From assembly GCA_964527425.1 (NCBI GenBank), contig CAZGOA010000006.1, forward strand, positions 13,928 to 77,927: a stretch of 64,000 bases of DNA. The letters are read 5' to 3'. The notes below the pieces were generated by a model that made no database searches, had not been told where the DNA came from, and worked only from the letters and a program-made list of their open reading frames with translations. Every line of letters starts with the position of its first letter. The first letter of the stretch is position 1. This DNA is from an uncultured Gammaproteobacteria bacterium. GTDB taxonomy: Bacteria > Patescibacteriota > Microgenomatia > UBA10105 > UBA927. The position numbers and the translations under genes are program-made. Shown piece by piece: positions 32,505-61,465 of this stretch.

Positions 32505-32575
32505 GGGCCCGTAGTACACCGGTAGTATAACTCCATGGCATGGAGTAGAAAGGGGTTCGATTCCCCTCGGGTCCA
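32505..32575 (+). tRNA. tRNA-Ala (anticodon GGC)
   Basis: Acceptor stem GGGCCCG/CGGGTCC carries G3:U70. Anticodon stem ACTCC/GGAGT encloses loop ATGGCAT. T-arm AGGGG-TTCGATT-CCCCT. No encoded CCA. Confidence 0.8.
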
Positions 32576-32616
32576 CAACAATTCATGTGTCAGGGTAAAT
32601 TGTATTAAGAGAAGCG

Positions 32617-39894: not shown

Positions 39895-41694
39895 TTGATA
39901 CTTATGAATAAATACTATTCAAAATTAAAAGTTATTATACCCTCACTGCTTATTATTGGATTTATCTTATTCTCTTTTGTACCAACGTTTTATGAATGGG
40001 GTAGTAGATGGAAAATTAAACCAATACGTCATTTTGAATTAGTTCATAATTTTCCGACAGATTATAATTTGTATCTTTCTAAAATCCGTCAAGGAAAGGA
40101 AGGTTCATGGCTTGCTCGTGAAAAATATACTGCAGAACCTCATGAGGGTAGTTTAAGTCAAATTTTGTATGTGTTTATTGGGAGAGTATCGGATTGGGTA
40201 AAAGTACAAACACCATATATATGGTTTTCCTATCATGTTATGAGGTTTTTCTTTTCTGCTCTTTTACTTTTTGTTATTTGGCAGGTAACAGGTTGGGTAT
40301 TTCAACGGTTTTCTTGGAGAGTATTGAGTTTTCTTCTTATTGTGACTGCATCTACATGGCCAAAGTTTGAAAGTGTTGACGGCTGGCCGCGTTTTGGAGG
40401 CTACATGCCCTGGTATACCATGGTGGACAGCTTACAAAGAACAACGTTTATGCCCCATGTTATGTTTGGTCAAGCGATGCTGGCTTTTATTGTATGGGTT
40501 TTTGTGGGAGGGTTTTTAACAAAAAAACATCCTCTTAACTGGATATTTTTGGGATTAATTGGATTTATACTTGGCATTATTTTCCCTCCGGCAATATTTT
40601 TCTTATATGGGATGTTGGGAATGTGGTCTGCTTTTGAATTGGTGTTGCTGTTTTGGCATGAAAAAGAACACCTAGGTGATGTCAAGTCACTTGTTCGTAC
40701 ATTAAAAACATGGGGGATGGAACGATTATTCGGGAGAGTAGTGTTTATTGCAATGACGTTCCCGACTATGTTGTATTACGCATTATTATTCTCACAATAT
40801 CCATGGAAGCGATTGGTAGAGTTTGATGTTATTAATCCAACTAAATTTTCCTACATTGAATATTTTTTAGCCTTAGGTCCAACACTATTATTTGGAATAC
40901 TCGGTATTGTAGTTGTGTATATTAATCGAAAAAATGCAATGAGTCAGAAACTTACCGGTTTTTGTGTCTGGGTCATTGCGTGGTTACTATTTACGTTTAT
41001 ATTTAATTTTATACCTCAACAATCACCAACGCGTTTTTCGCAGATGATACCGCATCTTCCGTTAGGCTTGCTCACAGGATATTTATTTTATTCGCTTATG
41101 AATCTTGTAGGCCGTATGCGAAAAAATTATACTGCAAAACATACTAAAGACAGTCAAGTCTACACTGTATTAACGTTTATATTGTATGCTTGTTTCTTTG
41201 TGCCGCTTACAATTGTTTTATTTGGAATAGGTTCTATGTTTTCATCATGGCTATGGCAGAAAGATTTTGTTGATCATAAATTACGGGCAGATATTCCATT
41301 GGTTCCAACAGGGGCACAGGTCATGTATCCCTTAAAAGATTTAGCCGAAGCCATGGTTTGGTTACAAGTTAATACTCCACGTTCAGCAGTAGTATTTTCT
41401 GGTAAAGCGACAGGAAATATGATTCCGGTATATGCAGGAAATACAACTCATGTAGGACATGCAAATACCGTAGCTTCTGAAATTAAGGAGATTGCTGTAG
41501 CAAATGTCTATGGTCGTAAAGTTCCCCGTCAAATTGTTGAAGATTATTTCAAACAATACTCTATTGCCTACGTTCTATTTGGTCCCGAGGAAGCAGAATT
41601 AGCTTTTGGAGCGACTGATCTACGAGAATTTTATCCATTTTTAGAAGAGGTTTATAGGAATCAATTCGTTATTCTTTATAAAGTAAATCTATAA
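39895..41694 (+). CDS. Polytopic membrane protein, member 1 of a four-copy paralog family in this window
   Basis: 599 aa. The first extracytoplasmic loop carries DYNLYLSKIRQGKEGSWLAREKYTAEPHEG...YVFIGRV, shared with genes at 44962, 46606 and 55338. Confidence 0.5.
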   Translation: MILMNKYYSKLKVIIPSLLIIGFILFSFVPTFYEWGSRWKIKPIRHFELVHNFPTDYNLYLSKIRQGKEGSWLAREKYTAEPHEGSLSQILYVFIGRVSDWVKVQTPYIWFSYHVMRFFFSALLLFVIWQVTGWVFQRFSWRVLSFLLIVTASTWPKFESVDGWPRFGGYMPWYTMVDSLQRTTFMPHVMFGQAMLAFIVWVFVGGFLTKKHPLNWIFLGLIGFILGIIFPPAIFFLYGMLGMWSAFELVLLFWHEKEHLGDVKSLVRTLKTWGMERLFGRVVFIAMTFPTMLYYALLFSQYPWKRLVEFDVINPTKFSYIEYFLALGPTLLFGILGIVVVYINRKNAMSQKLTGFCVWVIAWLLFTFIFNFIPQQSPTRFSQMIPHLPLGLLTGYLFYSLMNLVGRMRKNYTAKHTKDSQVYTVLTFILYACFFVPLTIVLFGIGSMFSSWLWQKDFVDHKLRADIPLVPTGAQVMYPLKDLAEAMVWLQVNTPRSAVVFSGKATGNMIPVYAGNTTHVGHANTVASEIKEIAVANVYGRKVPRQIVEDYFKQYSIAYVLFGPEEAELAFGATDLREFYPFLEEVYRNQFVILYKVNL

Positions 41695-42348
41695 TCAGGC
41701 AAATACTTCTAGCATATCTTTTTTTTCTACATGTATTGCTTGTTTAACCATGGTGATAACTTGCTCTCTATCAGTTTCTGAATTTACTACATCAACTGAA
41801 TTACAATCTATAAATATTGTTGGAATATGCTTGTGGTTATCGATAACAGCTTTATTTAATTCATGTAATAATTCTATATATTGGAGAGGAATGTCCCTTT
41901 CATAACTCCTTCCACGTGTTTCAATGCGATTCATGATTGTTTCAATAGTTGCATCGAGGTAAATGATTAATGAAGGCTGAGGTAAATGGTTAATAATGCC
42001 ATTATATAATTTTATGTATAAGGCCCATTCATCTTGATCCATATTTCCTAAACGATGTTGAGCTAATGCATAGGAGTATACATCTTGAAAAATAGGTGTA
42101 TCTTGAACAACACTTGATACTTCAAGAGAAACACTAATTTCCTCAAGTTGTTTTGCTTTTTCGAGTAAAAAAAACGCTTGAGAATGAAATGCCCAGCGTT
42201 TCATATCAGTATAAAATCTCGGTAAAAAGGGATTGTCGTTATAGTTTTCTGTAACTAGTGAATACGCAAGTCTTTCTGCAAGAAGAGTAGAGTACGTTGT
42301 TTTTCCTATACCAAGAGTACCCATTACACTGATTAGCTGATTTAGCAT
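41695..42348 (-). CDS. Deoxynucleoside kinase (dNK family)
   Basis: 217 aa. The P-loop GTLGIGKTT, the ERS-type motif (ETRGRSYERD) and the overall size match dAK/dGK/dCK-type kinases. Confidence 0.7.
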   Translation of the reverse strand: MLNQLISVMGTLGIGKTTYSTLLAERLAYSLVTENYNDNPFLPRFYTDMKRWAFHSQAFFLLEKAKQLEEISVSLEVSSVVQDTPIFQDVYSYALAQHRLGNMDQDEWALYIKLYNGIINHLPQPSLIIYLDATIETIMNRIETRGRSYERDIPLQYIELLHELNKAVIDNHKHIPTIFIDCNSVDVVNSETDREQVITMVKQAIHVEKKDMLEVFA

Positions 42349-42363
42349 ATTTATTTGGTTTTA

Positions 42364-43062
42364 TCATTTTTTCATATCTTTATACAACCGTATCATTTCT
42401 TTAATAGTTACAACGATCATAGTTGGGTCACCACCCTTAGGAAATCCACCAATTCGTGAATGATACCGAAATCCAACGTCTGTAAATTTTGCTCCCATGT
42501 TCCATGCTTTATAGATAACTTCTGGTTGTATAAGAGCGCTTCTGTCGAGTGCAGTGATTTCTATTTGATCGAGAATTTTTTTCTTCCATAAAATTGCTGT
42601 AGATATTTCACGAAGTGTTACTCCAAACAATAATCTATACATCATATGAAATATAAATGAATTTAACTTACGGGTAATTGGTTCTGGATTGCTATTCCTG
42701 AATCCAACTACTACATCCACGTCTTTGGTTTTACTAATAAATAGAGGGAGAACATCCATTGATACTTGACCATCTGCTGGAGCTAAAAAAATCCATTCGT
42801 TTCGTGCTTTTTTATAACAGCTTTTAATTGCTCCAGAAAAGCCTTTGTTTTCGGCATGCCTTACTATTGTAATAGTTGGATGTTGTTTTGCTGCATTCTT
42901 CATAATGTCATATGTGTGGTCTGTAGATCCATCATCAACTAACAGTAATTCAAATTTTTCACTTACTTGAGGGCCGATTTGCAGAGCACTGTTAATTACA
43001 GTTTGAATAGACGCTTCTTCGTTAAAGGCGGGAATGGATATTGTAAGAGATGATACTTTCAT
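42364..43062 (-). CDS. GT2 polyprenyl-phosphate sugar synthase (DPM1/GtrB-like, soluble-sized)
   Basis: 232 aa. The GT-A motifs ISIPAFNEE...LLLVDDGSTD and a DxD-like region are present. There is no C-terminal TM. Confidence 0.7.
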   Translation of the reverse strand: MKVSSLTISIPAFNEEASIQTVINSALQIGPQVSEKFELLLVDDGSTDHTYDIMKNAAKQHPTITIVRHAENKGFSGAIKSCYKKARNEWIFLAPADGQVSMDVLPLFISKTKDVDVVVGFRNSNPEPITRKLNSFIFHMMYRLLFGVTLREISTAILWKKKILDQIEITALDRSALIQPEVIYKAWNMGAKFTDVGFRYHSRIGGFPKGGDPTMIVVTIKEMIRLYKDMKK

Positions 43063-43065
43063 GAG

Positions 43066-43527
43066 TTATTTATTAAGTATTCGTGCAGGATTTCCAACTA
43101 CAGTTGTCTGGGGAGGAACATCTTTTGTGACAACACTTCCTGCTCCAACCATTGCTCCTTCACCTATTGTTACTCCGCATCGTATAGTTGCTCCAGCACC
43201 AATTGCTGCACGTGTTTTAACGACTGTTTTTTCTACAATCCAGTCGCTGGGTTGTTTTAAATCACCGGTTTCTGATACTGCTGCTGGAAAACGGTCATTG
43301 GTAAAGGTGACATTCGGTCCTATAAATACGCCATCTTCTATGACGACGCCCTCAGGTATGAAAACAAAGGGTTCTATTTTTACTCTATTACCGATAATGA
43401 CAGTAGGTTTTATCTCTACAAACGTTCCGATTTTACAGTCATTGCCAATAGTACATCCATAAATATTTACTAATTCAGGATGAAATATACTGGTATTTTT
43501 GCCAATGATTGCCGATTTATGAACCAT
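43066..43527 (-). CDS. Left-handed beta-helix (hexapeptide-repeat) sugar N-acetyltransferase
   Basis: 153 aa. Tandem hexapeptide repeats ([LIV]GxxxxI) run throughout. The size and pattern are like amino-sugar-nucleotide N-acetyltransferases (QdtC/WxcM/PglD-like). Confidence 0.7.
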   Translation of the reverse strand: MVHKSAIIGKNTSIFHPELVNIYGCTIGNDCKIGTFVEIKPTVIIGNRVKIEPFVFIPEGVVIEDGVFIGPNVTFTNDRFPAAVSETGDLKQPSDWIVEKTVVKTRAAIGAGATIRCGVTIGEGAMVGAGSVVTKDVPPQTTVVGNPARILNK

Positions 43528-43532
43528 AATAA

Positions 43533-44957
43533 TTAATCTGTTGAAATAAATAATGTACTGATGCGTTTACATAGTATAACAATCCATTGGATTCCGATCA
43601 CGATTAAAATTGCGTAAAGGGGATAAAGGGGAATAAGAAATCTTCCTTCAACCCATTCAGAAGCCGATTGAAAAAAATGCTGAAATAAAAATAACACAGC
43701 AACACTTATTAAAGGTATATTTCTTTGTAAGAATACTTTTATGATGCCAATACCAGCAATGAACATAAGGAGGGAAGTGATTATGGGATAAAGAGTTTGA
43801 TTAAATTGGATAGTACGTGCAAATATTGTATTGATAACCTGATTCGTTCGTAATGGCTGACAATACTCGGGTATCCACATAAATCGACACTGTTTAGTTC
43901 CACATATCAGACAATCAGGTTCTACGAAGCCTAATTGGGTTAATACGTTGCCATAGTAGGGAATTGTATTTGGGGTAATCAAAGCCATAGAGATGATATG
44001 CTGAATGTACTTTAAGGGATGTTCTTTTATTCCTTGTATGCTAACAGCGAGAAATAAATTATCAATTTCGATTTCTGTGAGCTCTTTGGTATAAAAAGCG
44101 TTAGCAAACAGTGGAAGCATGTCCCACCAGGGTTTGGTGATATCCATATCCGGGGGAATATACTTAAAAAATTGTTGAACTGTTGGGTTATCTCTTATCT
44201 GAGGAATAAATTTTCCAGCAGTAATGACGTTATTATATGCGTGTCTTCCTGTAAAAGATGACATCATTACTTTGTTATAGTGAACCTTATTAAACAGAAG
44301 CCACCACACAATGATAAACAAGCCGACTATTCCAGGTAAAATTGATACTAATTTGTGAGGTCTGCTTTTAAATGCAGGCATCCAATTCCATAATCCAACA
44401 AGCCACCATATACCTGCAAATAACACCCAGGGAATAAATGCATATCTGGTCAAACTGAGTAAGGCACAACACAATAAGACGATACTTCTTTTCCAGTAAT
44501 CAGGTTTTATTTGTAGGTAAATATGCAACGTTAAAGCAACTAAAAACATTGTTGTTACTTCAGACATAAAAACAAAAGCATACAGGAGATTAAAGGGGAG
44601 TAATAAAAATACGACACTACTCACAAGTCTCATTGGTTTTGTTAGATACTGTTTTAGACAGAAATAAATAAGCAAACTGGAACCTCCAATCATTAACAGT
44701 TGAAGAAACGGTAGTGTAAACTGTATTCCTGGCTTGACGTAAACCAGTGGGTAGGAAAGCACAGCAAACAAGGGACCAAATAATGTTTGAGGTATTTCTG
44801 CATTTAGCGGGGCTACAGGCAGTAATTGTCCTGTTAGGAGATAATGCCCAAGTACATAATAAAAATATGCGTCAGGTATCTCAAATATTCCAATGTATAT
44901 TGAGGCAAAAAAAGAGACTAGTATGAAAATTACTGAACCGAGTAGAATTTTTTTCAT
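43533..44957 (-). CDS. Polytopic membrane protein (GT-C-like candidate)
   Basis: 474 aa, about 12 TM helices, with a first loop EIPDAYFYYVLGHY. It lies in an operon with the acetyltransferase and GT2 genes. Confidence 0.4.
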   Translation of the reverse strand: MKKILLGSVIFILVSFFASIYIGIFEIPDAYFYYVLGHYLLTGQLLPVAPLNAEIPQTLFGPLFAVLSYPLVYVKPGIQFTLPFLQLLMIGGSSLLIYFCLKQYLTKPMRLVSSVVFLLLPFNLLYAFVFMSEVTTMFLVALTLHIYLQIKPDYWKRSIVLLCCALLSLTRYAFIPWVLFAGIWWLVGLWNWMPAFKSRPHKLVSILPGIVGLFIIVWWLLFNKVHYNKVMMSSFTGRHAYNNVITAGKFIPQIRDNPTVQQFFKYIPPDMDITKPWWDMLPLFANAFYTKELTEIEIDNLFLAVSIQGIKEHPLKYIQHIISMALITPNTIPYYGNVLTQLGFVEPDCLICGTKQCRFMWIPEYCQPLRTNQVINTIFARTIQFNQTLYPIITSLLMFIAGIGIIKVFLQRNIPLISVAVLFLFQHFFQSASEWVEGRFLIPLYPLYAILIVIGIQWIVILCKRISTLFISTD

Positions 44958-44961
44958 ATTT

Positions 44962-46596
44962 TTATTGCTGTTTCACTTTGTAGACTGTAACATCAGAATT
45001 TGTGAATATGGATTCTAAGATAGTAGGATAAAGAGTTGTTGTGTTAGAAAATGATTTTTCATCCGGTCCCCAAAATACATGAGTAATATGTTCTTTTTGC
45101 AGTAATTCTCGTGCATCTTTATCGGAAAGCTGTGCTTTATAAAAATGTTCAGCTATCCATCGTCTTTCAAGCCAATCGGTAAACCCATGTCCTCCTCCAA
45201 TATATACTGATACTGGTCCAAACGCAGGTAACATTTCTCCAAAATATTCTTTTACCATTACATTACTCTGTTGGGGCAGGTTTTTCATAAACAGTACTCC
45301 CTGCCAGGTTTCTTTCGTTGGATAGATATTTATCCAAAAGTTTTCTTGAGCTGTATATATTTGTTTGGTATATTGCCAGGTAAAAAATGTAGAAATGAGA
45401 ATGAGAGTAATGGTCAATATAAATCCTACTGATTTTCGTACTGTCGAGGGAAAGATAGATAATAAGTGCCATATTCCAATAGTACTGAGTATTCCAGCAG
45501 GTGCGTAACCGTGCAGATCAACAAGCCGAAAATTTGCAAATGGAAACCACGACAAATGACTAATAGAAATTAAACCTATTGGAAATAGTAACCAGCTTAA
45601 TGAAAGGATAAAAGAGGTCCACAATTTCGTGGACATTTGCTTATAGCGAATAATACTTGCCCCAATAGCGGTAATTATAAAAGGAACATAGAGCAGTAAA
45701 GAATTTACATATTGGTTGATGACTACACTGTGCTGCATCCATGACTTTTCTTCAGCTGTCCATTCTGTCCAGGGACTCCCTTTACTAAATTCTACTTTTA
45801 ATAATAGGGCGGCAAGTATTATTCCAATAAAAGCTGAAACTAGGATGAGTGTGTAATATTTCCAATGGGTTTTCTTTTTAATAAGAAGAAATAGAAATGC
45901 AATACCTGACATGGCAAAGTAGGGAACGATAAAAGATGGAAGCACTGTCGTTGCCCAGAACCCAAGCAGAAACAGTAATACTGACTGAAGTATCCATAGT
46001 TTTTTCTTGGTACTTGGGTTAAATAGGCAATAGAGTATGAATCCGAAAAATAAAAACCCAAAGGCGTCTCCCCAGGTGTGATGAGGAAGAGAAAATCGTC
46101 GTTCAAATAATATATGAACATCCCACGCTGGTACTAATTGAAAGAGGCCATTTTTTAGTGAACTAAATGATGGACTTGTTTCTAAACCAACAGCTAAGAT
46201 GGTTGCAACAGTTGCCCATCTGGATGGAAATAATTGTTTAGCTAGGAAATATAAACAGAATGCACTACTTATTACCCCTGTTAATCGTAATAGTTGGTAC
46301 ATGTCTACTGGATCAATGGAAAAAAGTGAAGCTATTTTTCCAGCGACAACAAAAAAAAGCTGTGCATAAACGATTGGTGTTTCTCTGGTGGTATGAGTGT
46401 CTTTTATTCCCCAGCTTCCGTCTTTAGCTTGTCTTATCATCGAAGGATAATAAAAATTTTTCCCTAATACATTGTATGTTCTGCCTTCAGGAGCTATTGT
46501 GTATGGTCTGTTGCTTACGGATAAAAAATATATACTTTGAAAGATCAGTACAATAATGACAAACAGTATTGGATGAGAACGGATAAGTTTTAACAT
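44962..46596 (-). CDS. Polytopic membrane protein, paralog-family member 2
   Basis: 544 aa. The loop-1 motif is FYYPSMIRQAKDGSWGIKDTHTTRETPIVYAQLFFVVAGKI. Confidence 0.5.
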   Translation of the reverse strand: MLKLIRSHPILFVIIVLIFQSIYFLSVSNRPYTIAPEGRTYNVLGKNFYYPSMIRQAKDGSWGIKDTHTTRETPIVYAQLFFVVAGKIASLFSIDPVDMYQLLRLTGVISSAFCLYFLAKQLFPSRWATVATILAVGLETSPSFSSLKNGLFQLVPAWDVHILFERRFSLPHHTWGDAFGFLFFGFILYCLFNPSTKKKLWILQSVLLFLLGFWATTVLPSFIVPYFAMSGIAFLFLLIKKKTHWKYYTLILVSAFIGIILAALLLKVEFSKGSPWTEWTAEEKSWMQHSVVINQYVNSLLLYVPFIITAIGASIIRYKQMSTKLWTSFILSLSWLLFPIGLISISHLSWFPFANFRLVDLHGYAPAGILSTIGIWHLLSIFPSTVRKSVGFILTITLILISTFFTWQYTKQIYTAQENFWINIYPTKETWQGVLFMKNLPQQSNVMVKEYFGEMLPAFGPVSVYIGGGHGFTDWLERRWIAEHFYKAQLSDKDARELLQKEHITHVFWGPDEKSFSNTTTLYPTILESIFTNSDVTVYKVKQQ

Positions 46597-46605
46597 TATG
46601 TAATA

Positions 46606-48201
46606 TTATTTTAGTATTACTTTTGTAACACTGATTGAATCCATTTCAAAGACTTTCTGAAAATACGGCAATGTATTATATTTAGAATCGTTAAATGGAA
46701 TAGTCTCGTATCCCCAAATGATATAATCAACTTTTAACGAATCTAATACATTGTACACCTCCTCATTTGTTAAGTAATTGTTATAAAAGAGTCCGATTGT
46801 ATGTTTTTTTTCATCGTAGTAAGTGGTATTTCCATTGTGTCCTATAATTACTTTATTGTGAGAGATTGCTGGTATTGTAGAACTTAACGCTTCAGGTGCG
46901 AGGATAACACTCCGATATTCTGTTTTTGTTCTTAAAAAATGATAGACAGGAGTCATGGTAGTTATGAGTCTTGCAGTATTCGTATAATGAATATTTGGGT
47001 ATGAATATTCCAGGAGATTAGTGAGAAACGGGGGTACGGCAAATACTATACAGAATATGGCAAACATACTCGCAATAACATTTCGAAATCTAAAGGGAAT
47101 TATTGTACACTTTGAAAGTGTATAAGCAGATAATAATGCAAGAGGAATATGTTGATAGGTTTGAAATAATCTAATTCCTCCAGTAGGTATACCAATATTT
47201 GGCATATAAAATAATCCAATAGGAAGTAAACCCCATGCAATGAGAAAACGAGTTTGTACATTTTTCCAGTTTGAAGGTACCCAGAGTGATAAAAAAAACG
47301 GTATGAATAATGGTCCTAGTGCCAGTAAGTAATTCGGCAACGAAACCGCAGGTGGAGACCAAACCATGGTATCTGCATTAGCAGTCGAAGCATTCTGCCA
47401 CACATTGGTTAGTAAATATCGGTTATATACAATACTTGGGGCTGAAGCAATGATGGCAGTTAAACAATGAAAGAGCAATATCAGTGTTTGTTTCCTATTA
47501 AATAGAACTGCAGTTACTGATGTGAAGATAAAAAAATAGATAAGAAATATGACAACATAGGGATGGAGAAACGAAAGAAATATAAAACTTGTGAAGGTAA
47601 TCGTTAGTGAAGTAATAGTAAATGACAATGATGGCAAGCGCAGCCACAGCAAAAGTATCATTACTGAAGCAATATAATGATGAGGAGGAATGTGGATAAA
47701 TTTTTTTATAGCATTAAACCAATTAGAATATGTCTCTACATCTACGGCTTTGGTAATGTCATTGGCAATTAGATAATATACGCTTGTACTCGTTGTCCAA
47801 AGTACAAGACCGATATATTTAAAAGAATTTTTAATTAGTGTAAAAAAACTAAAAGTGACAAAGAAAATAAGTATAATAATTGCAAAAAATCTAGCTATTG
47901 TATACACATGAAACGGACTGATATTGAATGGAGAAGAAAGTAGGCCAAGTATATTGTAATGTGGCTGTAACAGCATGGGTGGAAAATTTTGTTCAGAGTA
48001 TTGGTTGTGGAAAAGCAATCTCCCTTCCTGTCCTGATTTAATCATCCATGCGTATTGCATTAAATCCATCGGATAGGGAGAAGGGAACCCATATTCAGTT
48101 GGTAATGATTGTGTATTGCTATACACAATATACATATATGCGTTTGTTACTACTGCAAATGCAATCATAACAAGCGATGTTATGATGTATGATCTCCTCA
48201 T
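46606..48201 (-). CDS. Polytopic membrane protein, paralog-family member 3
   Basis: 531 aa. The loop-1 motif is DLMQYAWMIKSGQEGRLLFHNQYSEQNFPPMLLQPHYNILGLL. Confidence 0.5.
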   Translation of the reverse strand: MRRSYIITSLVMIAFAVVTNAYMYIVYSNTQSLPTEYGFPSPYPMDLMQYAWMIKSGQEGRLLFHNQYSEQNFPPMLLQPHYNILGLLSSPFNISPFHVYTIARFFAIIILIFFVTFSFFTLIKNSFKYIGLVLWTTSTSVYYLIANDITKAVDVETYSNWFNAIKKFIHIPPHHYIASVMILLLWLRLPSLSFTITSLTITFTSFIFLSFLHPYVVIFLIYFFIFTSVTAVLFNRKQTLILLFHCLTAIIASAPSIVYNRYLLTNVWQNASTANADTMVWSPPAVSLPNYLLALGPLFIPFFLSLWVPSNWKNVQTRFLIAWGLLPIGLFYMPNIGIPTGGIRLFQTYQHIPLALLSAYTLSKCTIIPFRFRNVIASMFAIFCIVFAVPPFLTNLLEYSYPNIHYTNTARLITTMTPVYHFLRTKTEYRSVILAPEALSSTIPAISHNKVIIGHNGNTTYYDEKKHTIGLFYNNYLTNEEVYNVLDSLKVDYIIWGYETIPFNDSKYNTLPYFQKVFEMDSISVTKVILK

Positions 48202-48274
48202 AAAGTAAATATTAGAAAATTTAGGTACAAACAGTGTTGTATAACTCTATATTTTATATTATAGTTTGAGGACT

Positions 48275-49063: not shown

Positions 49064-49064
49064 T

Positions 49065-50054
49065 ATGAAATCTTATAAACAATCATTTCCATATAAGTCG
49101 GTATTAGTCACTGGAGGAACAGGGTTTGTTGGTAGCCATCTTGTTGAAACCTTAATCGACAAACACATTCAAGTCATTGTTCCATATCGCAGTATTGATT
49201 ATGCTTCATATTTTTATAAAAAAGGATTGGAGAAAAAAGTAACTTTGGTGCCTTGCGATATAAAATCGAGAGAGCAAGTGCTGGATGTAGTTGGTAAGTA
49301 TGAAGTTTCTTTTATTTATCATCTTGCAGCTCAACCAATTGTTACGACTGCATTTTATAATCCTGTAGAAACATTACTTACAAATATTATGGGGACGGTC
49401 TATTTATTGGAAGCAGTCAAAGCACTATCACACGTTAAAGGTATTATTGTCGCTTCTTCTGATAAAGCATATGGAATGACAAAAAAAGAATATACAGAAG
49501 ATTCTCCATTGAGAGGGTTACATCCGTATGATGTTTCAAAATCTTCCTGTGATTTAATTGCACAAACATATGCAACTACGTATGATTTACCAGTAATAGT
49601 AACTAGATTTGGCAATATTTATGGTGAAGGTGACCGAAATATGAACAGAGTGATACCTGGTATTATTCAATCTATGTTGCGAAAAGAAGAGTTTATCATC
49701 AGAAGTGATGGAACATACGTACGGGAATATTTATATGTAAAAGACGTGGTGAATGGGTATATTGCTTTAGCAGAAAAATTTAAAGACGTAGTAGGCGAAG
49801 CGTTCAATTTTGGTACTTCTTACAGACGTTCTGTTATAGAGTTAGTTCATGATGTTGAAAAAATACTTAATGTAAAAGTGCCCTTTAAAATTGCCAATAC
49901 TGCAAAGAAAGAAATTCCATTTCAAGCGCTTAATTGGGATAAAGCAAAAAGCAAGCTTTTATGGAAACCAACTCATACGCTCTCTCAGGTTTTGCCGGCA
50001 ATAGTTGAATGGTACTCACATTACAATTCGTATGAGAATTTTGTTACTAGCTAA
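49065..50054 (+). CDS. rfbG: CDP-glucose 4,6-dehydratase
   Basis: This is an extended SDR. It has VLVTGGTGFVGSHL and the catalytic YDVSK, and it is syntenic with rfbF. The ATG lies 2 nt after the rfbF stop. Confidence 0.8.
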   Translation: MKSYKQSFPYKSVLVTGGTGFVGSHLVETLIDKHIQVIVPYRSIDYASYFYKKGLEKKVTLVPCDIKSREQVLDVVGKYEVSFIYHLAAQPIVTTAFYNPVETLLTNIMGTVYLLEAVKALSHVKGIIVASSDKAYGMTKKEYTEDSPLRGLHPYDVSKSSCDLIAQTYATTYDLPVIVTRFGNIYGEGDRNMNRVIPGIIQSMLRKEEFIIRSDGTYVREYLYVKDVVNGYIALAEKFKDVVGEAFNFGTSYRRSVIELVHDVEKILNVKVPFKIANTAKKEIPFQALNWDKAKSKLLWKPTHTLSQVLPAIVEWYSHYNSYENFVTS

Positions 50055-51471
50055 TAATTGGGTGGGGTGGGAGATAACAAAATTTCTTTCATCAGACACA
50101 GATGTTGATATTGTTGGACTTGGAATTCACGCACCTTCTAAACAAAAATATACCAAGTATATTCTTCAATCAGTTAATTTACCAAAGTCGAAAATTTTAT
50201 TAGGATCTACATTTAAACAATCAACAACCATTGAACGTATCAGACGATTAAAACCAGATCTAATAATCAGCGCATTTTGGGGGTATATCTTAACAAAAGA
50301 TATTATTGCTATTCCGACCAAAGGAAGTATCAACTTTCATCCAGGATATCTACCAACCAATCGAGGAATGAACCCTAATGTATGGCCGTTTATTGATAAC
50401 ACTCCCGCAGGAGTAACTATTCATTATGTTGATGAAGGTATTGATACAGGAGACATTATTGCTAGACGGAAAGTTCCTATTACTCCTTACGATACAGCAG
50501 AATCAATATATGAAAAAACAATGGCGGATATTGTTGAATTGTTTAAAGAAATATGGCCGAACATAAAAAAAGGCACTGCTCCTCGTATAAATCAGAAAAC
50601 ATTACCAGAAATATCAACGCATCATTATGCTCAAGATATTGAGTCTATTAATACTATAGATGTAGATAAAACGTATACTGGTCAACAACTTATCAATTTA
50701 CTTAAAGCAAGAAGTTATCAGGACAAGTTATTTTTATCCTATACGGATAAAGGTGATCAAGTATACCTTAGTGTACAGTTATACTCTCCAAAAAAATTAC
50801 CGGTCAATACCAAATCTGAGTATCAAAAGTATGTAGAGTATGCGTTAAAGTCATATAAAGAACCATATAGACCGTTAATAATTTCAGTACAAAATAACTT
50901 AAAAATTAAGTTAAAGCCATTTACAAGAAAAGATATAGATGATGAACAACTCGTTCAGATACTAACTAGATGGAGAAAAAAAGCCCAACCATTTTTCCCA
51001 AGTACATTTCGTGTAACCAATGAGAGGACAAAAAAATGGCTCCAATCAGAACTAATAAATAAAAACGATAGAATACTCTTTCTAATTTACTTGCAAGATC
51101 GAAAAACTCCCTTAGGACATGTTGGACTGTATCGATTTGAATGGGATTCATATTCGTGTCAAATCGATAATGTCATAAAAGGTATCAACAGGAAAGAAAC
51201 TAAAGGTATTATGACAATGGCAATACATGAATTAGGTGAATGGGCATTGAATCATCTTGGTGTTCGTACTTTAACATTATATGTCTTTGAAGATAATGAA
51301 AAAGCAGTCAATTTATATACACGCTGCGGATTCATTATAAAAAAAAGAATTCCTCAGCGATTTGAAAAACTAAACAGTCAGGAATTTCACTGGGTCAATG
51401 ATGATCGAATTTCGATAATGAAACCTGAGAGAGTATTGTTGTATATGGTCAAATATCTTTCTAAGGGATAG
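50030..51471 (+). CDS. Fusion protein: formyltransferase domain (ArnA-N/Fmt-like) and C-terminal GNAT acetyltransferase
   Basis: The N-terminal ~200 aa carry the formyl_trans_N core (HPGYLPTNRGMNPNVWPFID...GVTIHYVDEGIDTGDII). The C-terminal ~170 aa have a GNAT fold with the acetyl-CoA motif (GHVGLY...ETKGIMTMAI...LYTRCGF). Confidence 0.7.
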
Positions 51472-53641
51472 TCGTTTCATACAAACTAAAATCATAATCT
51501 GATTTTACTAATTTGCTGTATGGTTGTAATTTGGACCATAGTGCAGGATATGCATGTTTTGTTTCCCAATACGGAGAATAAAATTCTTTTTCATTGATAA
51601 ATACATAAAACGTTGAACCTCTTGCTATCTGTAAAGCATCTTCAATTTGTTCTTCACTAACGATTAAACTGCGTATGAAGGTATACGGTAAAGCTGGTTT
51701 TAAATGCAAGGCTGCGATTAAATCAATACTATTATCAAACAACACTATCTTAGAATTTTTAGGAATACTTGATAAGAAAACATATTGTTCTGATTGTTTT
51801 ACATCCCATTGTTTTAATCTGGTATGCATAATTGCAAAAATTTCTGATGTTGTATGGATAGGATTTTTCCAATATTCAACAATTAATAAGCCATTTCTAA
51901 AGGTTGCCAGCAACAGAATAAATCCGAATATGTATGTTACAACTCTGGGTAATATATGCTTATCCTTATACTGGTTTTCAATTATGTGTACTACCATCGT
52001 CATAAGTAGAATAGTAGGAATTAAGATACTGTAGAGCAGAGGAGGGAGTGATCGGCCAAGATAATAAGGAAGCAACGATAACTGTGTAAATGATACATAT
52101 AGTAATCCAATACCAATTTTATGTTGTTTGCTCATTAAATGGAGTCCCAGTACAATACTGATGACAGAAACTATAAAGGGAATAAGCATCATACCCTGTT
52201 TATCTACAGGAACTAAATAAAACCCAGAACTAAATATTTTTATGAACTCATAATACAGAGAAAAATCAGGGAACGTTTGTTTGGTTATGAGAGTAAGAAG
52301 TACAATACTAAATATTGAACCAACTAATGATGTAAGTGTAACTACACTTACTAATCGGAATAATGCAGTTTTTTTACTACTAAAAAATATTGCATAGATA
52401 CATATGCTTGCCAGTCCTGATACTGCTATACCAATACCGATTTCGAATGAAAAAAAGAACATAAGGACACTAGCAATAATAAATAAAATGAGAGGTAACT
52501 TTTTAGAATTGTGTATATAAGAAGCAAGAAAATAGAAAGGAAAAATCATAGGACCTAAACGCAGAGGAGTAAAAGCTGGTGCACCAATCAGTGACCATTG
52601 ATCTTCAAAATAAAAAGACCTATTTATTAGCGTATAGTAAACAGCTGTAAAAGTTCCAAGTGCAGAGAGAATATTGTTTTTTGTGATTTTTTTTAAAGTA
52701 ATGTAAAAAAATACATAATATACAAATAAAAATAATAAGGTAACCATTGATGTAAATTCTCTTGAAAGTGGGAGAAAAGGGAATGCTTTTATCCATATCA
52801 GCCAAGGCAATAAATAGATGATTCCGTATTGGCTAATAACATCTACAAATGGTGTGGCACCGGTAATAATATGATATGCAGGCAGAGTCGTAAAAAATAA
52901 ATCACCATAATATCTATCCAGAGTAAGAAATGGTAATAATACTAATACAAGAATGATTATTGTTGCGAATGTGATTATAGGATTAATAAATTTTATTGAA
53001 CGTATGTACTCGAATACCTGTTTTATAGCAGGTTTTATTCCCAACAAAAGGGGTAATACTATAAAAAGATAACTATACTGCATTATGATCTTATCAGGTA
53101 AAATTATGGCTGAAGAATCAATCGTTGGTGGAGAAAAGAGATACACCCCCGCATCTAATTCCAGGAAACCTGGAATAAAATATTTGGCAACCGAAGCGAT
53201 GAATAATAGCTGGGTAGTTTGAGCACTAAATGGTTTTTGTAAGATAAATAATTGAAACACAAGCACTATCATAAACAGGAGATAAAAGCGCATATCAGTT
53301 GCCAGTTGCAGTGGAAAAGGATAATCACCTACAACAAGTAATCCAATAAAGGTGCTCGGGAGAATATACATTGATATTTTTTCTAGAAGAACTCTATTTT
53401 CTGAAGTTGTGAACAAGTAAAGCAGTAATTGAGAAACAAGAATAAATAACGCGACAAGAATAATAAAACAAATATAAAAAAGTACATCTTTTTCTGGTGC
53501 AAAATGTCCGTCTATTAATAACGCGTAGGCTGGTTCTGTAGGAAGGGGAATACGAGAAATAATCAGTGGAGTTAGTATTGAAGAAAAGAAAGACGAAAGA
53601 ACAAACTGCAACGATAAAATAGGTAGAGCAAATAAATTCAT
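51461..53641 (-). CDS. Large polytopic membrane protein (GT-C-like candidate)
   Basis: 726 aa with more than 14 TM helices and a C-terminal ~150-aa soluble domain. No named motif. Confidence 0.4.
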   Translation of the reverse strand: MNLFALPILSLQFVLSSFFSSILTPLIISRIPLPTEPAYALLIDGHFAPEKDVLFYICFIILVALFILVSQLLLYLFTTSENRVLLEKISMYILPSTFIGLLVVGDYPFPLQLATDMRFYLLFMIVLVFQLFILQKPFSAQTTQLLFIASVAKYFIPGFLELDAGVYLFSPPTIDSSAIILPDKIIMQYSYLFIVLPLLLGIKPAIKQVFEYIRSIKFINPIITFATIIILVLVLLPFLTLDRYYGDLFFTTLPAYHIITGATPFVDVISQYGIIYLLPWLIWIKAFPFLPLSREFTSMVTLLFLFVYYVFFYITLKKITKNNILSALGTFTAVYYTLINRSFYFEDQWSLIGAPAFTPLRLGPMIFPFYFLASYIHNSKKLPLILFIIASVLMFFFSFEIGIGIAVSGLASICIYAIFFSSKKTALFRLVSVVTLTSLVGSIFSIVLLTLITKQTFPDFSLYYEFIKIFSSGFYLVPVDKQGMMLIPFIVSVISIVLGLHLMSKQHKIGIGLLYVSFTQLSLLPYYLGRSLPPLLYSILIPTILLMTMVVHIIENQYKDKHILPRVVTYIFGFILLLATFRNGLLIVEYWKNPIHTTSEIFAIMHTRLKQWDVKQSEQYVFLSSIPKNSKIVLFDNSIDLIAALHLKPALPYTFIRSLIVSEEQIEDALQIARGSTFYVFINEKEFYSPYWETKHAYPALWSKLQPYSKLVKSDYDFSLYETTIP

Positions 53642-53729
53642 GTAGATGGAATAGTAGGGTGTTACCTATGTTTGTATAGGTACTATAATAGTATACTTAA
53701 CAATACTATCAATTATCGTATCACTAATA

Positions 53730-55334
53730 ATGAGTAAAGTATCTTCATATTTCATCATCTCGTTTTTTAGTATTTGTTTAATAATAATTGGGTTATTTTT
53801 ACGATTATATAAATTGGATTCTGTTCCGTATGGATTAACGAATGATAATGTCGGAGGATATTATGCAAGCAGTATATTAATGAATACAGGTAAGAATTTT
53901 GAAGGAGTCTTTTTACCCCGTTCATTTCAGTTGGATAATTCTTTTTCTGCAGGGTTTGTTTATTTTTATGCACCGTTTACCATGCTTTTGCCAAAATCTC
54001 CATTTGCGGTGCGTTTTCCAGCTGTGTTAGCTAGTCTGATCGCTATATGGTTGTTATATAAGGTTGCCTATAATTTATTTAATAATCGAAATATTGCGTT
54101 GCTAAGTGCTGTAGTGTTAAGTGTATCTCCCTGGCATATTCATATGAATAGGGGAGCGTATGATGGGCCTATTTCTCTTTTTGTAATTTTATTTCTCTAT
54201 GCTCTTTTGTTATTTATACGATATAAGAACATATTACCGATGATTATTGCATTTCCTTTAGCTTACTATGTTTATCATCCAATAAAAATTTTCTTATTAG
54301 CGTTTATTCCTTTTATTAGTATTAATTATCTTCAATTTTTATTCTCACAAAAAAGAAAAGTCTTTTTATTTGGAATTGTATTCTTTGTAACAGTTATTTC
54401 TTTTTTTGTTGTCATTAAACAGGAGGGGGTTAATAGACAAGAAGTATTATTATGGAGTAATCAATCAAATGCTTCATCATTTGTAAATTGGGAACGAACG
54501 GTTAATCTTGCGCCTCAATTTATGCGTGTTTTATTTAGTAACAAAGTAACATACTACGGCTTTGAAATTGCGAGTAGATACATGGATGCCTTTTCTTTTA
54601 ATCGATTATTTATATCTGGTGAGGGTGGAATCTACGGTACGTACAGACATGGATTTTTTTACTTCATAGAATTAGGATTTTTTATTGTGGGTTTATATTA
54701 TCTTGTTACAAAACGCACTTATAAGGAAAGCATTATTGTCCTGGGTGGTTTATTTATTGCTCCTCTACCTACTGCATTTTCAAGTGATTTTTCGATGGGT
54801 TTGAGAAGTATAAGTATGCTGCCATTTATGAGCATTATTATTGGCTGCGGCATGTTTTATCTTACTGAATATATTGGTACCTTTCGAAGATTTTCTGTCC
54901 CCATAACAACATTAATTTTTTTAGGATATATGTTTTCTGTAATTGCCTTTGGGTATTTATATTTTTATAGATACTCCGTGTATGGAGCCGAATATTATTT
55001 TTCAAGCAACAGAGAGGTTATTGAGTATGTTACTACAAAAAAAGACAGCTACGATTCTATTCATTTTGTAAATACGGGTCCTATGTTTTTATTTCAATAT
55101 GCTTTTTTTAGTGATACAACTATGGATGAAGTACTAGTAGCATGGAAATCAGAGTGGCCAAAATCTCTTGGGAAAATAAAGTTTATTAATGATTGTGATA
55201 CATCAAAACTTTCTCTACAACCTAAAGAAATGTATATCGCACCAACGTCTTGTTTTAAAGAGACTACTCCATCAGCCACTATTGTTGACAAGGCTGAACC
55301 GTTGCGGGTTATCTGGAATATATTTGAGCGTTAA
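53730..55334 (+). CDS. GT-C-fold polytopic membrane glycosyltransferase candidate (PMT_2/ArnT-like)
   Basis: 534 aa. TM1 is followed by LRLYKLDSVPYGLTNDNVGGYY. The 12-13 TM helices and C-terminal soluble domain give an ArnT-like topology. Confidence 0.5.
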   Translation: MSKVSSYFIISFFSICLIIIGLFLRLYKLDSVPYGLTNDNVGGYYASSILMNTGKNFEGVFLPRSFQLDNSFSAGFVYFYAPFTMLLPKSPFAVRFPAVLASLIAIWLLYKVAYNLFNNRNIALLSAVVLSVSPWHIHMNRGAYDGPISLFVILFLYALLLFIRYKNILPMIIAFPLAYYVYHPIKIFLLAFIPFISINYLQFLFSQKRKVFLFGIVFFVTVISFFVVIKQEGVNRQEVLLWSNQSNASSFVNWERTVNLAPQFMRVLFSNKVTYYGFEIASRYMDAFSFNRLFISGEGGIYGTYRHGFFYFIELGFFIVGLYYLVTKRTYKESIIVLGGLFIAPLPTAFSSDFSMGLRSISMLPFMSIIIGCGMFYLTEYIGTFRRFSVPITTLIFLGYMFSVIAFGYLYFYRYSVYGAEYYFSSNREVIEYVTTKKDSYDSIHFVNTGPMFLFQYAFFSDTTMDEVLVAWKSEWPKSLGKIKFINDCDTSKLSLQPKEMYIAPTSCFKETTPSATIVDKAEPLRVIWNIFER

Positions 55335-55337
55335 CAT

Positions 55338-56939
55338 ATGATACATTCTTTTTTTCCTAAGATTACTAGTACGTTTTTGATCATGGTTGTAGTTGTTTGT
55401 ACTATTCTCTTCTCAAATATTATTCCAATATTATCTATTCAGCAAAAACTTCCTGGTGCAGTAGCTTATGGTTTTTTTAAGTCCCATCCTGAAGATTATT
55501 TTCAATATGTTTCAATGATTCGACAAGGCAAGGAGCATAATTCATTATTATTTACTAATCAGTATGATTCAACACAGTTGCGAACGTATTTTATTCAGCC
55601 TTTCTATAATATCGTCGGTGTTGTTACACAATTTCTCCCTTTTGATCAGTTTCAAATTTTTTTTTTAATAAGAATGATATCAGCGTTGTTGTTTTATCTG
55701 GTTTTTTTAGAATTAGTATTTAAAGTATTGTCCCAAAACCGACAACGATTATTTGCTATTCTTTTATTCAGTACTATTACTGCATTTAGTGTTGCTTCTG
55801 TGTGTGAGGGTATAGCTTGCAGAATGGATCCTCAAACATATGCAGGTGCTTATTTTAATGCTTGGTTACGACTGTTAATTTTACCTCCACATCATTACCT
55901 GGCATTGTTGTTGGTTATGAAATTCTTAATACGTATACCTAATCTAAACATATCTTACAGATCTTTATTAATTACTATACTTATGTCTGTTGTTTTAGGA
56001 TTATTACATCCATATATTGCTTCAAGTTTTTTTAGTATATTTTTCATCACTGTTTTTGTGAAAAGTATAGCTAAACGGGCATTTTTAAAAGAACTCACAG
56101 TACATTTATTCATCCTGGGATTTATTGTTGCTTTACTGGCTGTTTATACAAAAATTCAAACAAGATATGAGTTGGGAAGTGTATTTAGATATGTTCAATA
56201 TGAGTATGTTATTGAGTATATAAAAGCGCTTGGAACAGGAAGTTTGCTGTTGGTGTTATCAATGTTTTTTATACGAAAGATAGTAAAACTACCGCATGGT
56301 ATTCCCATGGTAGTATGGGCAATATTTCCTGGTTTAGCCATACTTACTCCTATAATACGAACACTATTAGGAGAATATAGAATTTTTCAGATAATGCAGC
56401 ATATACCAATAAGTATATTAGGAGGATTTGTTTTAGATTACATAATAAAAAAATTCAAGATCATAGGAATCATTACAACAACGGGTCTTTTTTTAGTAAT
56501 ACTGTATATACTCGCCCCTGTGTATCTTATTCATTGGAAGTATATGACAAATCCAGGTAGTGTCGAATTTTTTCAATATAAAATATTTTCAATTGTGAAG
56601 TCCATGGTCCCTTCATTAAACATGACTGGACCAGCATACAAAGTAGTACTCAGTGGAGATATGGTATCGGCTATGTTACCAGCATTAGGACCTTACAGAG
56701 TTGTAAATGCAAGAATAGGGAATACCCCTGATTTGGAGCAGAGCTTAGTGGACGTGCAACAGTTTTATTATGGTCTGCCTGAACAACAATTAATACGATT
56801 TTTTAATACATATCATCCATCAAGTGCTTTATTTGGGATTGATACAGTAACGTTTTCGACTAGTCAGTATACTCATTCACCATATTTTACAGAAACAGCA
56901 CGTATGGGAGAAATATCACTTGTAGAAATTAACCGTTAA
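55338..56939 (+). CDS. Polytopic membrane protein, paralog-family member 4
   Basis: 533 aa. The loop-1 motif is DYFQYVSMIRQGKEHNSLLFTNQYDSTQLRTYFIQPFYNIVGVV. Confidence 0.5.
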   Translation: MIHSFFPKITSTFLIMVVVVCTILFSNIIPILSIQQKLPGAVAYGFFKSHPEDYFQYVSMIRQGKEHNSLLFTNQYDSTQLRTYFIQPFYNIVGVVTQFLPFDQFQIFFLIRMISALLFYLVFLELVFKVLSQNRQRLFAILLFSTITAFSVASVCEGIACRMDPQTYAGAYFNAWLRLLILPPHHYLALLLVMKFLIRIPNLNISYRSLLITILMSVVLGLLHPYIASSFFSIFFITVFVKSIAKRAFLKELTVHLFILGFIVALLAVYTKIQTRYELGSVFRYVQYEYVIEYIKALGTGSLLLVLSMFFIRKIVKLPHGIPMVVWAIFPGLAILTPIIRTLLGEYRIFQIMQHIPISILGGFVLDYIIKKFKIIGIITTTGLFLVILYILAPVYLIHWKYMTNPGSVEFFQYKIFSIVKSMVPSLNMTGPAYKVVLSGDMVSAMLPALGPYRVVNARIGNTPDLEQSLVDVQQFYYGLPEQQLIRFFNTYHPSSALFGIDTVTFSTSQYTHSPYFTETARMGEISLVEINR

Positions 56940-61456: not shown

Positions 61457-61465
61457 ATAAGAATA

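Follow-up and report, generated by a model that had tools for sequence, protein, structure and literature searches.

In the stretch of DNA analysed here (the window, 64 kb in length), at least 13 genes code for large polytopic membrane proteins. Four of them, paralogs A to D (Table 1), had been singled out in an earlier note, which gave the coordinates and strands of their open reading frames exactly and quoted motif strings that recur verbatim in the translations. Paralog A, whose TTG start codon is preceded by an AAAGAGG sequence 8 nt upstream, stands alone, with a gene for a small membrane-anchored protein transcribed divergently from it. Paralogs B and C belong to one tightly packed operon with the gene order C-B-G474-acetyltransferase-GT2-dNK, in which the acetyltransferase is of the hexapeptide type, and D is co-transcribed with the PMT_2-type GT-C gene at 53730-55334, convergent to a GT2-containing operon. 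The proposal that three of the paralogs share operons with GT2 and acetyltransferase genes applies to B and C but not to A and D. A scan for promoters and terminators gave no useful information; promoter-like sites were rarer than in shuffled sequences.

Table 1. Genes discussed in this study, with positions in the window.
Feature	Position	Strand	Product (aa)	Remarks
Distant fifth relative	25258-26994	-	578	Nearly full-length alignment to the family profile
DUF2298 gene	27064-29445			In the same window
PMT_2 gene	37340-39067			Pfam PMT_2, ~1e-11
Paralog A	39895-41694	+	599	GT-C-fold member, A subfamily
Short GT2, B/C operon	42364-43062	-	232	Pfam Glycos_transf_2, 3.8e-25
Hexapeptide-repeat sugar acetyltransferase, B/C operon	43066-43527	-	153	Pfam Hexapep, 1.8e-23
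Paralog B	44962-46596	-	544	Used for the structure model
Paralog C	46606-48201	-	531	First gene of the minus-strand operon
Sugar-nucleotide genes	48266-51471	+		Divergent from C
PMT_2 gene	53730-55334			Pfam PMT_2, ~1e-11
Paralog D	55338-56939	+	533	Starts 3 nt past the stop of the PMT_2-type gene
Two small overlapping membrane proteins	57017-58046	-	176 and 169	Flanked by D and the RfbH/GT2 operon
GT2 with C-terminal TM helices	59373-60338	-	321	Beside the D locus; Pfam GT2

The four proteins align beyond chance from end to end, and their similarity is not confined to the short motif by which they had been recognised. In BLASTP comparisons at a nominal database size of 1e6, C and D share 25% identity over 545 columns (E 2.3e-36) and A and B 21% over 560 columns (E 6.9e-9), with E-values of 1.2e-5 for B and C and 0.009 for A and D. 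A family HMM scores the paralogs at 358-475 bits (A, 475) and every other open reading frame of the window at 31 bits or less. While the homology of the four thus stands, the count does not, because the window also contains a distant fifth relative, detected with an hhalign probability of 96.6% (E 5.9e-10, 484 columns) and by hmmsearch (E 2.3e-10, HMM positions 18-534). Its loop 1 reads SDFGAHIPLIRSFSLGSNW, and a Pfam search with it gave no match. Four further reading frames (32873-35392, 51461-53641, 43533-44957 and 23339-25267) were rejected as members, with hhalign probabilities below 18%; PDB sequence searches with 23339-25267, 32873-35392 and the fifth relative returned nothing meaningful.

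The family is large. An exhaustive HMM search identified 4,679 full-length representatives at 50% identity (E ≤ 1e-3), 453 of them at E ≤ 1e-30; it was needed because a word-indexed search retrieved just 2 matches with D as the query and 18 with the family profile. In agreement with the earlier note, which assigned these proteins to no named family, A-D have no Pfam match at E ≤ 1, none in NCBIfam and no significant PDB sequence match, nor did any search point to a well-characterised non-glycosyltransferase family. Cluster look-ups gave 'hypothetical protein' as the only name, and the literature on GT-C enzymes and oligosaccharyltransferases (OSTs) in Patescibacteria, CPR bacteria and Gottesmanbacteria, as well as on DUF2298, yielded nothing on the A-D family.

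Each paralog falls into a clade of its own with 5-48 cluster representatives, which stem from other genomes. It shares 35-45% identity with members of this clade, compared with 15-25% with its paralogs in the window. This pattern indicates that the duplications behind A-D are ancient and that the paralogs represent old subfamilies, bearing out the suggested diversification by duplication. The accompanying term 'lineage-specific' holds for the A subfamily, the one surveyed in a species-level genome collection, which occurs almost only in metagenome-assembled genomes of Gottesmanbacteria/Microgenomates/Patescibacteria. Orthologs of A were found at 80 genome loci with conserved synteny, and 58 of 81 related loci carry two to four family members. 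In the syntenic relative L001, the layout of the locus is kept at ~80% identity. Since the paralogs are so divergent in amino acid sequence that synonymous sites are saturated, dN/dS was determined for orthologs. The values obtained with the L001 orthologs of C (80% identical, dN/dS 0.15) and D (P0002, 78.5% identical, dN/dS 0.14) resemble those of neighbouring enzyme genes and show that both are under purifying selection.

The architecture predicted for A-D comprises an intracellular N-terminus, 11 transmembrane (TM) helices, a long first extracytoplasmic loop (EL1) and, after the last TM helix, an extracytoplasmic α/β domain of ~125 residues. A high-confidence AlphaFold model of B, built from an alignment of 147 sequences (the four paralogs alone gave an unusable pLDDT of 39.5), contains 11 TM helices and a domain at residues ~420-544, with EL1 (residues 35-95) forming two helices. 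Model and positive-inside rule agree with the topology initially proposed, namely one TM helix, a long loop, about ten further TM helices and a C-terminal soluble domain. The comparison with GT-C structures called for in the earlier note returned GT-C enzymes only, with STT3A, AglB, Stt3 and PglB as the top Foldseek matches, so that the predicted polytopic structure superposes on solved GT-C enzymes, as is typical of the GT-C_A fold. The model thus supports the original reading of these proteins as GT-C glycosyltransferases, which would presumably be active as such.

The C-terminal domain has its best structural and sequence matches in the C-terminal domains of AglB-S2 and STT3 and is homologous to their core, a feature shared with the STT3/AglB/PglB proteins (GT66; PF02516) and particularly with the short AglB-S2 of Archaeoglobus fulgidus. 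Together with the Foldseek ranking, this relationship would suit divergent single-subunit OSTs that hand over preassembled glycans en bloc to proteins, with polyprenyl diphosphate as the carrier. A conceivable glycoprotein substrate is a membrane-anchored protein with Pro/Thr/Ser-rich segments whose gene is divergently paired with A at no fewer than 35 of the 80 related loci. However, the family lacks the WWDYG motif, the DxD motif in EL2 and the TIXE/SVSE acid of GT66. In a profile alignment, WWDYG of AglB-S2 coincides with 'agetvG' of the family, in columns that read [SA]-G-E-[YTF]-x-[GS] and conserve neither Trp nor Asp, and the OST metal acids (DxD/ExD in EL2, the TIXE/SVSE Glu in EL5) have no conserved counterpart among the 147 members. 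Moreover, A-D have 11 predicted TM helices rather than 13, an invariant P-H(-H) motif of their own at the start of TM4 and no match to Pfam STT3 at E ≤ 1, and a PDB profile search matched solved OSTs weakly (E 0.025 and 2.1) and in the C-terminal domain only, with no match in the membrane domain. These differences place A-D outside GT66 as defined, and the absence of OST signatures argues that they are not sequon-dependent N-oligosaccharyltransferases. En bloc transfer of the OST type is, in our estimation, very unlikely.

Profile-profile comparison also revealed homology to the DUF2298/'YYY domain' proteins (PF10060, TIGR03662; 97.7%, E 1.6e-12) that spans the final TM helices and the C-terminal domain in full, and the loop-1 string 'D-Y-G-F...I-Q-Q-S' is similar by eye. 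However, DUF2298 proteins measure ~750-800 aa and there is no significant alignment over the N-terminal two-thirds, limiting the homology to the C-terminal ~40%, and A-D reach no Pfam or TIGRFAM threshold with the whole-protein DUF2298/YYY HMM. No Pfam-detectable relation links A-D to the ArnT/PMT_2, GtrC-type or YfhO families; for YfhO (PF09586), no match was obtained for A-D at E ≤ 1 or for 21 other members at E ≤ 0.1, and no solved YfhO structure is among the fold-search matches.

The loop-1 motif of the family is D-[YF]-x-x-Y-x-S-x-I-[RK]-Q-G-x-x-G-x-W. The acidic position highlighted in the initial consensus (K/Q-E/D-G) does not qualify as conserved, being acidic in just 75 of 147 members, whereas an Asp four residues before an invariant-like Tyr is retained in 127. 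This is the only acidic column strongly conserved across the family: EL2 column 343 contains D, N or E in 62, 38 and 12 of the 147 sequences, respectively, and in the last loop an Arg is conserved but no acid is. Judging from the alignment, this loop-1 Asp, rather than the residue flagged before, is a candidate catalytic acid. Other highly conserved residues that are predicted to be extracytoplasmic include Tyr50, Gly60, Gly86, Arg104, Pro171-His172, Pro220, Trp335, Arg357 and Pro457; given the topology, they may cluster with the Asp in one pocket. Paralog A keeps the loop-1 Asp (Asp56) along with Glu81, the EL2 residue Asp178, His188 and Arg380, C keeps Asp46, His174 and Arg344, and D keeps Asp53, His185 and Arg348.

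The combination of a long EL1 with a conserved acidic residue, as expected for GT-C_A enzymes, is therefore seen in the family but not in B, which has Lys46 at this position, or its relatives. Among 21 B-subfamily sequences, the Asp position is occupied by K, G, Y, E or D, and the EL2 Asp/Asn is absent as well. Because the loop-1 Asp is missing, B may use another residue or be non-catalytic. Some members, B above all, could accordingly serve as GT-C-fold scaffolds, substrate-presenting partners or lipid-carrier-binding subunits beside catalytic paralogs, a role that the translational adjacency of B to C and another polytopic protein would fit. However, B retains the invariant His172 as well as Arg166, Arg357 and Trp335 and possesses 'TTR' and an 'AKDG' motif instead, whose Asp59 position is acidic in 14 of the 21 sequences; its subfamily is also widespread, forming the largest exclusive clade with 48 representatives. 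A non-catalytic role thus appears quite unlikely, and Asp59 may be the alternative residue.

The genes surrounding the paralogs are consistent with a supply of activated sugars. The Gtr, Arn and GT136 systems are established examples of a three-component logic, in which a polyprenyl-phosphate-sugar synthase is combined with a flippase and a GT-C enzyme (PMC11127046). As in the Gtr, ArnC/ArnEF/ArnT, PgfS/PgfM and GT136 systems, GT-C genes here lie beside a polyprenyl-phosphate-type GT2 gene and sugar-modifying genes. The GT2 beside D shows full-length NCBIfam matches to PgfS (1.5e-71) and ArnC (4.4e-41) and resembles the GtrB/ArnC/PgfS-type polyprenyl-phosphate glycosyltransferases, whereas the short GT2 of the B/C operon, whose best NCBIfam matches (PgfS, ArnC, PpgS and dolichyl-phosphate hexose transferase) are weak, is a candidate polyprenyl-phosphate sugar synthase supplying a lipid-linked donor. 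Since the matches of both fall below the equivalog cut-offs, this donor-supplying role is assigned by family resemblance only. The acetyltransferase matches the NeuD/PglB/VioB family (1e-24), and the genes divergent from C encode a glucose-1-phosphate cytidylyltransferase, a CDP-glucose 4,6-dehydratase and a sugar N-formyltransferase fused to a GNAT domain. RfbH, aminotransferases and a formyltransferase are encoded near D, and an ArnA-like formyltransferase and DegT aminotransferases are shared with the three-component systems. Unlike these systems, the locus contains several GT-C paralogs rather than one and no recognisable flippase gene, as judged from Pfam and NCBIfam searches of the window for GtrA, SMR/ArnEF, MATE and Wzx proteins. 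The two small overlapping membrane proteins, which match nothing in Pfam or NCBIfam but are conserved in L001, are the only candidates for this function.

Alternatively, A-D could be PMT-like protein O-glycosyltransferases, which would move single sugars from polyprenyl phosphate to Ser/Thr residues of proteins that are secreted or exposed at the surface, the product of the conserved neighbour 39102-39830 being one example. While the adjacent genes 37340-39067 and 53730-55334 match PMT_2, A-D match neither the PMT nor the PMT_2 HMM at E ≤ 1, and the family profile aligns with these two genes at hhalign probabilities below 4%. Compared with PMT, PMT_2 and ArnT proteins (PF13231, PF02366; GT39, GT83), the loop-1 motifs differ, loop 1 lacks the Asp-Glu pair and the MIR domain is absent, and the proposed acceptor is entirely speculative. 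We regard this option as unlikely, albeit less so than an OST-type activity.

Collectively, our results make it probable that A-D represent a large, as yet unnamed family of membrane glycosyltransferases with the GT-C(A) fold in Gottesmanbacteria/Microgenomates (Patescibacteria). The task of these enzymes is most likely to decorate the cell surface, with lipid-linked sugars as donors. A cytoplasmic pathway would first produce nucleotide sugars, in this case CDP-derived amino/deoxy sugars carrying N-formyl or N-acetyl groups. A GtrB/ArnC/PgfS-type GT2 would then move the sugar onto polyprenyl phosphate, and the product would be flipped across the membrane. The PgfS/ArnC-like GT2 neighbours and the outer-face Arg and His residues suggest that a polyprenyl-(di)phosphate sugar, probably a lipid monophosphate, acts as the donor on the extracytoplasmic face, where the GT-C enzyme could bind its phosphate via Arg104, Arg/Lys166, the invariant His172 and Arg357 (B numbering). 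The loop-1 Asp may serve as a base or acceptor-positioning residue during sugar transfer to an acceptor at the cell surface, conceivably a glycopolymer or a surface protein rich in Ser/Thr. Differences in donor, acceptor or linkage are likely among the four paralogs. It is tempting, if distinctly improbable, to go further and view the family as a bacterial (CPR) sister lineage of STT3/AglB that constitutes a new, sequon-independent assembly line of multiple paralogs for surface-protein or cell-wall glycosylation. Such a lineage would have retained the GT-C core together with a C-terminal domain of the AglB type, while the sequon-reading WWDYG motif and the metal site would have been lost or never present; its paralogs would build the envelope glycans of ultra-small bacteria outside the cytoplasm, with the Asp-less B subfamily using a different catalytic arrangement.

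Our findings extend the known diversity of GT-C enzymes rather than establish a new principle. They provide a family of thousands of members that lacks a Pfam or NCBIfam model with a fold, a topology, a set of candidate catalytic residues open to testing and a plausible pathway of donor supply, which would improve the annotation of CPR genomes. As a relative without WWDYG, the family also bears on how the OST C-terminal domain evolved. Gottesmanbacteria/Microgenomates are uncultured and have genomes of ~1 Mb. Evidence of the GT-C type exists for nine proteins of the window, comprising A-D, the fifth relative, the two PMT_2 proteins, the DUF2298 protein and a weak GT87 match, and the A-D family suggests that these bacteria assemble glycans extensively outside the cytoplasm.

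The open reading frames of the four membrane-protein paralogs A to D lie at exactly the coordinates reported in an earlier note on this DNA, and the strings that it quoted from their long first extracytoplasmic loop (loop 1) occur verbatim in the encoded proteins. Paralog A starts at a TTG codon (39895) with a Shine-Dalgarno-like element (AAAGAGG) 8 nt upstream; translation could alternatively begin at ATG 39904. The similarity extends beyond the loop-1 motif, with B, C and D aligning to A end to end at 19-21% identity. Pairwise BLASTP comparisons (database size 1e6) linked C to D (E 2.3e-36, 25% identity over 545 columns), A to B (E 6.9e-9), B to C (E 1.2e-5) and A to D (E 0.009). These E-values and the end-to-end alignment indicate, at the sequence level, that A-D constitute a true family whose members are old and divergent. 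None of six other large membrane proteins of the same region matched A-D by BLASTP (E<=10).

Coordinates of the four paralogs and of associated genes
Feature	Coordinates	Strand	Details
Paralog A	39895-41694	+	599 aa
Paralog B	44962-46596	-	544 aa
Paralog C	46606-48201	-	531 aa
Paralog D	55338-56939	+	533 aa
Distant fifth family member (large membrane protein)	25258-26994	-	578 aa; hhalign 96.6%; hmmsearch E 2.3e-10, HMM positions 18-534
DUF2298 / chlor_Arch_YYY protein (large membrane protein)	27064-29445	+	793 aa; TIGR03662 7e-130
Large membrane protein	23339-25267
Large membrane protein	32873-35392
Large membrane protein	43533-44957
Large membrane protein	51461-53641
GT87-like/NPCBM protein	35398-37314		weak GT87 match; NPCBM glycan-binding domain
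PMT_2 protein	37340-39067		PMT_2 match
PMT_2 protein	53730-55334		PMT_2 match
Anchored protein	39102-39830	-	242 aa; divergently paired with paralog A
Two small membrane proteins	57017-58046	-	176 and 169 aa; genes overlap by 11 nt

Paralogs A-D have no Pfam-A match at E<=1 and no meaningful NCBIfam match, 21 further family members also lack a Pfam match, and a profile search of PDB sequences returned no significant full-length match; in the source records, family members are named 'hypothetical protein'. With a profile built from the four sequences, an exhaustive HMMER search of 1.84 billion cluster representatives retrieved 4,679 sequences at E<=1e-3, of which 2,823 pass E<=1e-10 and 453 pass E<=1e-30, and nearly all of the 150 matches listed are 500-600 aa long and matched end to end. 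AlphaFold supplied with only the four paralog sequences reached a pLDDT of 39.5; an alignment of 147 family members was used instead, yielding a model of paralog B with a pLDDT of 94.9 and a pTM of 0.94. This model comprises 11 transmembrane (TM) helices, a first external loop of 60 residues containing two helices and a C-terminal α/β domain (residues ~420-544), in agreement with the previously proposed topology of one TM helix, a loop, about ten further TM helices and a soluble C-terminal domain. The short loops have a charge pattern compatible with an N-in topology that places the C-terminal domain outside. When the model was compared with the PDB using Foldseek, the leading 28 matches were all GT-C glycosyltransferases, among them STT3A (6.3e-9), AglB, yeast Stt3, DPY19, PglB, AftA, ArnT and AftD, after which the scores fell abruptly to noise. 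Independently, a profile search pointed to the AglB-S2 domain (E 0.025), the same domain as in the fold match, and, in the same profile region, to the C-terminal domain of yeast STT3 (E 2.1). A-D belong to a large unannotated GT-C family in which an 11-TM GT-C(A) core is joined to an AglB-type C-terminal domain lacking the signatures of STT3/AglB/PglB oligosaccharyltransferases (OSTs). Nor do they match the PMT, PMT_2 or YfhO models, even though two genes nearby yield PMT_2 matches.

In the 147-member alignment, loop 1 has the consensus D-[YF]-x-x-Y-x-S-x-I-[RK]-Q-G-x-x-G-x-W-L ... Y-T-x-E ... G-K, with the last G invariant. It is followed by a conserved R close to the outer end of TM2, [RK]-x5-P-H-H (first H invariant) where TM4 begins, P-W and Y-x4-G-P in one of the later loops, a conserved W within TM9, R-L-x-Q-x4-P in the final loop and S-V-V-L-x5-G-x2-I-P-A-x5-V-x2-G-H ... 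F-x2-G ... L ... I-x-Y-V-x2-G in the C-terminal domain. The hallmark of OSTs is the WWDYG motif, and their metal ligands are the acids of the DxD and TIXE/SVSE motifs. In the profile alignment to AglB-S2, WWDYG is aligned with 'a-g-e-t-v-G', and the corresponding family columns read [SA]-G-E-[YTF]-x-[GS], without the conserved Trp-Trp-Asp. Only one acidic column is strongly conserved family-wide, a loop-1 Asp (127/147), whereas the EL2 acidic position varies (D 62, N 38, E 12 among the 147 members) and the last loop contains a conserved Arg but no conserved acid in these sequences. The DxD and TIXE/SVSE ligands therefore have no counterpart in the family. Lacking both these ligands and WWDYG, it cannot be placed in GT66 as defined, and a role in sequon-dependent N-glycosylation appears unlikely.

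The conserved acid is not the one in the 'K/Q-E/D-G' segment highlighted previously, which is acidic in only 75 of the 147 members, but the Asp four residues before a near-invariant Tyr. It is present in all A-like (23/23), C-like (16/16) and D-like (5/5) sequences. By contrast, the B-like sequences (n=21), which have K, G, Y, E or D at this position, show conservation of 'A-K-D-G' (acidic in 14/21) and of 'T-T-R' instead, so that paralog B may either use a relocated acid or be non-catalytic.

Each paralog shares 35-45% identity with cluster representatives from other genomes, compared with 15-25% with the other paralogs in the window. Neighbour-joining places A, B, C and D in exclusive clades of 34, 48, 14 and 5 representatives, with a small shared clade (19 tips) only for C and D. 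As judged from these sequences, the family is present in Microgenomates as ancient paralogous subfamilies. Together with the fold matches, this leaves the initial interpretation, an unnamed GT-C family diversified by duplication, essentially intact. Divergence between the paralogs is too high for dN/dS estimates, which were obtained from orthologs (~80% identity) on a 98-kb contig with the same gene order (L001). The values for C (0.15) and D (0.14; Nei-Gojobori) lie within the range of neighbouring enzyme genes (0.06-0.16). A scan with the A-subfamily alignment, using one genome per species, identified 89 loci, nearly all in Candidatus Gottesmanbacteria, Woesebacteria, Microgenomates or 'Patescibacteria group' MAGs. 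Of 81 related loci, 58 contain two to four ORFs that reach 100 bits or more with the family HMM. A orthologs and Gottesmanbacteria-type synteny occur in many third-party MAG records that bear the title 'uncultured Gammaproteobacteria bacterium' (L003-L069); given this synteny, the titles are probably placeholders or wrong labels.

Paralogs C and B form a minus-strand operon with genes for a 474-aa membrane protein, a hexapeptide acetyltransferase, a 232-aa GT2 protein and a deoxynucleoside kinase (gaps of 3-15 nt). Divergent from C are genes for glucose-1-phosphate cytidylyltransferase, CDP-glucose 4,6-dehydratase and a sugar N-formyltransferase-GNAT fusion. Paralog D begins 3 nt after a PMT_2 gene and faces a convergent operon for the two small membrane proteins, RfbH (E 8e-199), a 321-aa GT2 protein, a second DegT aminotransferase and a split transketolase. 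The 321-aa GT2 protein has C-terminal TM helices and full-length matches to PgfS (1.5e-71) and ArnC (4.4e-41). This layout is that of Gtr/Arn-type three-component systems, in which a GT-C transferase acts together with a flippase and a polyprenyl-phosphate sugar synthase (PMC11127046). On this basis, we propose that A-D would use polyprenyl-phosphate-linked sugars as donors for the glycosylation of surface acceptors, with conserved outer-face Arg and His residues binding the phosphate and the loop-1 Asp acting on the acceptor. No recognisable flippase was found in the window. The sole candidates are the two small membrane proteins, which have several TM helices each, a soluble C-terminal part and no family match, and are kept in L001. 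CDP-hexose pathway genes are located at 48266-51471 and 58072-63207 (cytidylyltransferase, CDP-glucose 4,6-dehydratase, RfbH 3-dehydrase, two DegT aminotransferases, formyltransferase-GNAT fusion and split transketolase), a set that suggests an unusual N-acylated amino-dideoxy or branched sugar. At 18471-20828, a UbiA-family protein encoded next to an FAD amine-oxidase-like gene has decaprenyl-phosphate phosphoribosyltransferase as its best NCBIfam match (7e-49, below cut-off) and may provide a second lipid-linked (pentofuranose) donor pathway for nearby GT-C proteins.

Near A orthologs, the recurrent gene order is Rho, LysM/M23 peptidase, 839-aa membrane protein, GT87-like/NPCBM protein, sometimes PMT_2, and the 242-aa anchored protein paired with A. 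The order of the segment 29560-41694 is kept in dozens of Gottesmanbacteria-type genomes (L002-L081), which points to a core cluster for envelope biogenesis. Between the gene for the M23 peptidase and the cluster of membrane-protein genes, the plus strand carries a tandem pair of tRNA-Ala genes (32396-32576; anticodons CGC and GGC) separated by 37 nt. The anchored protein, which has an N-terminal TM helix, a Pro/Thr-rich linker, a Ser/Thr-rich C-terminus and no family match, is the nearest recognised product encoded upstream of A in at least 35 of 80 loci (GT87-like gene, 17/80). Given its divergent pairing with A, it could be a glycosylation substrate or a partner.

The distant fifth member, whose loop 1 reads SDFGAHIPLIRSFSLGSNW, aligns with the family over its full length and has no Pfam match. 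Its gene adjoins that of the DUF2298 protein, whose final TM helices and C-terminal domain are shared with the family (profile-profile 97.7%, E 1.6e-12); no described function for DUF2298 was found in the literature searched. The remaining unassigned membrane proteins of the window are not detectably related to the family. In total, 13 large polytopic membrane proteins are encoded within ~34 kb (23339-56939), namely A-D, the fifth member, the DUF2298, GT87-like/NPCBM and two PMT_2 proteins, and four (642, 839, 474 and 726 aa) without family assignment, and the density of GT-C-like genes is very high for a genome of ~1 Mb.
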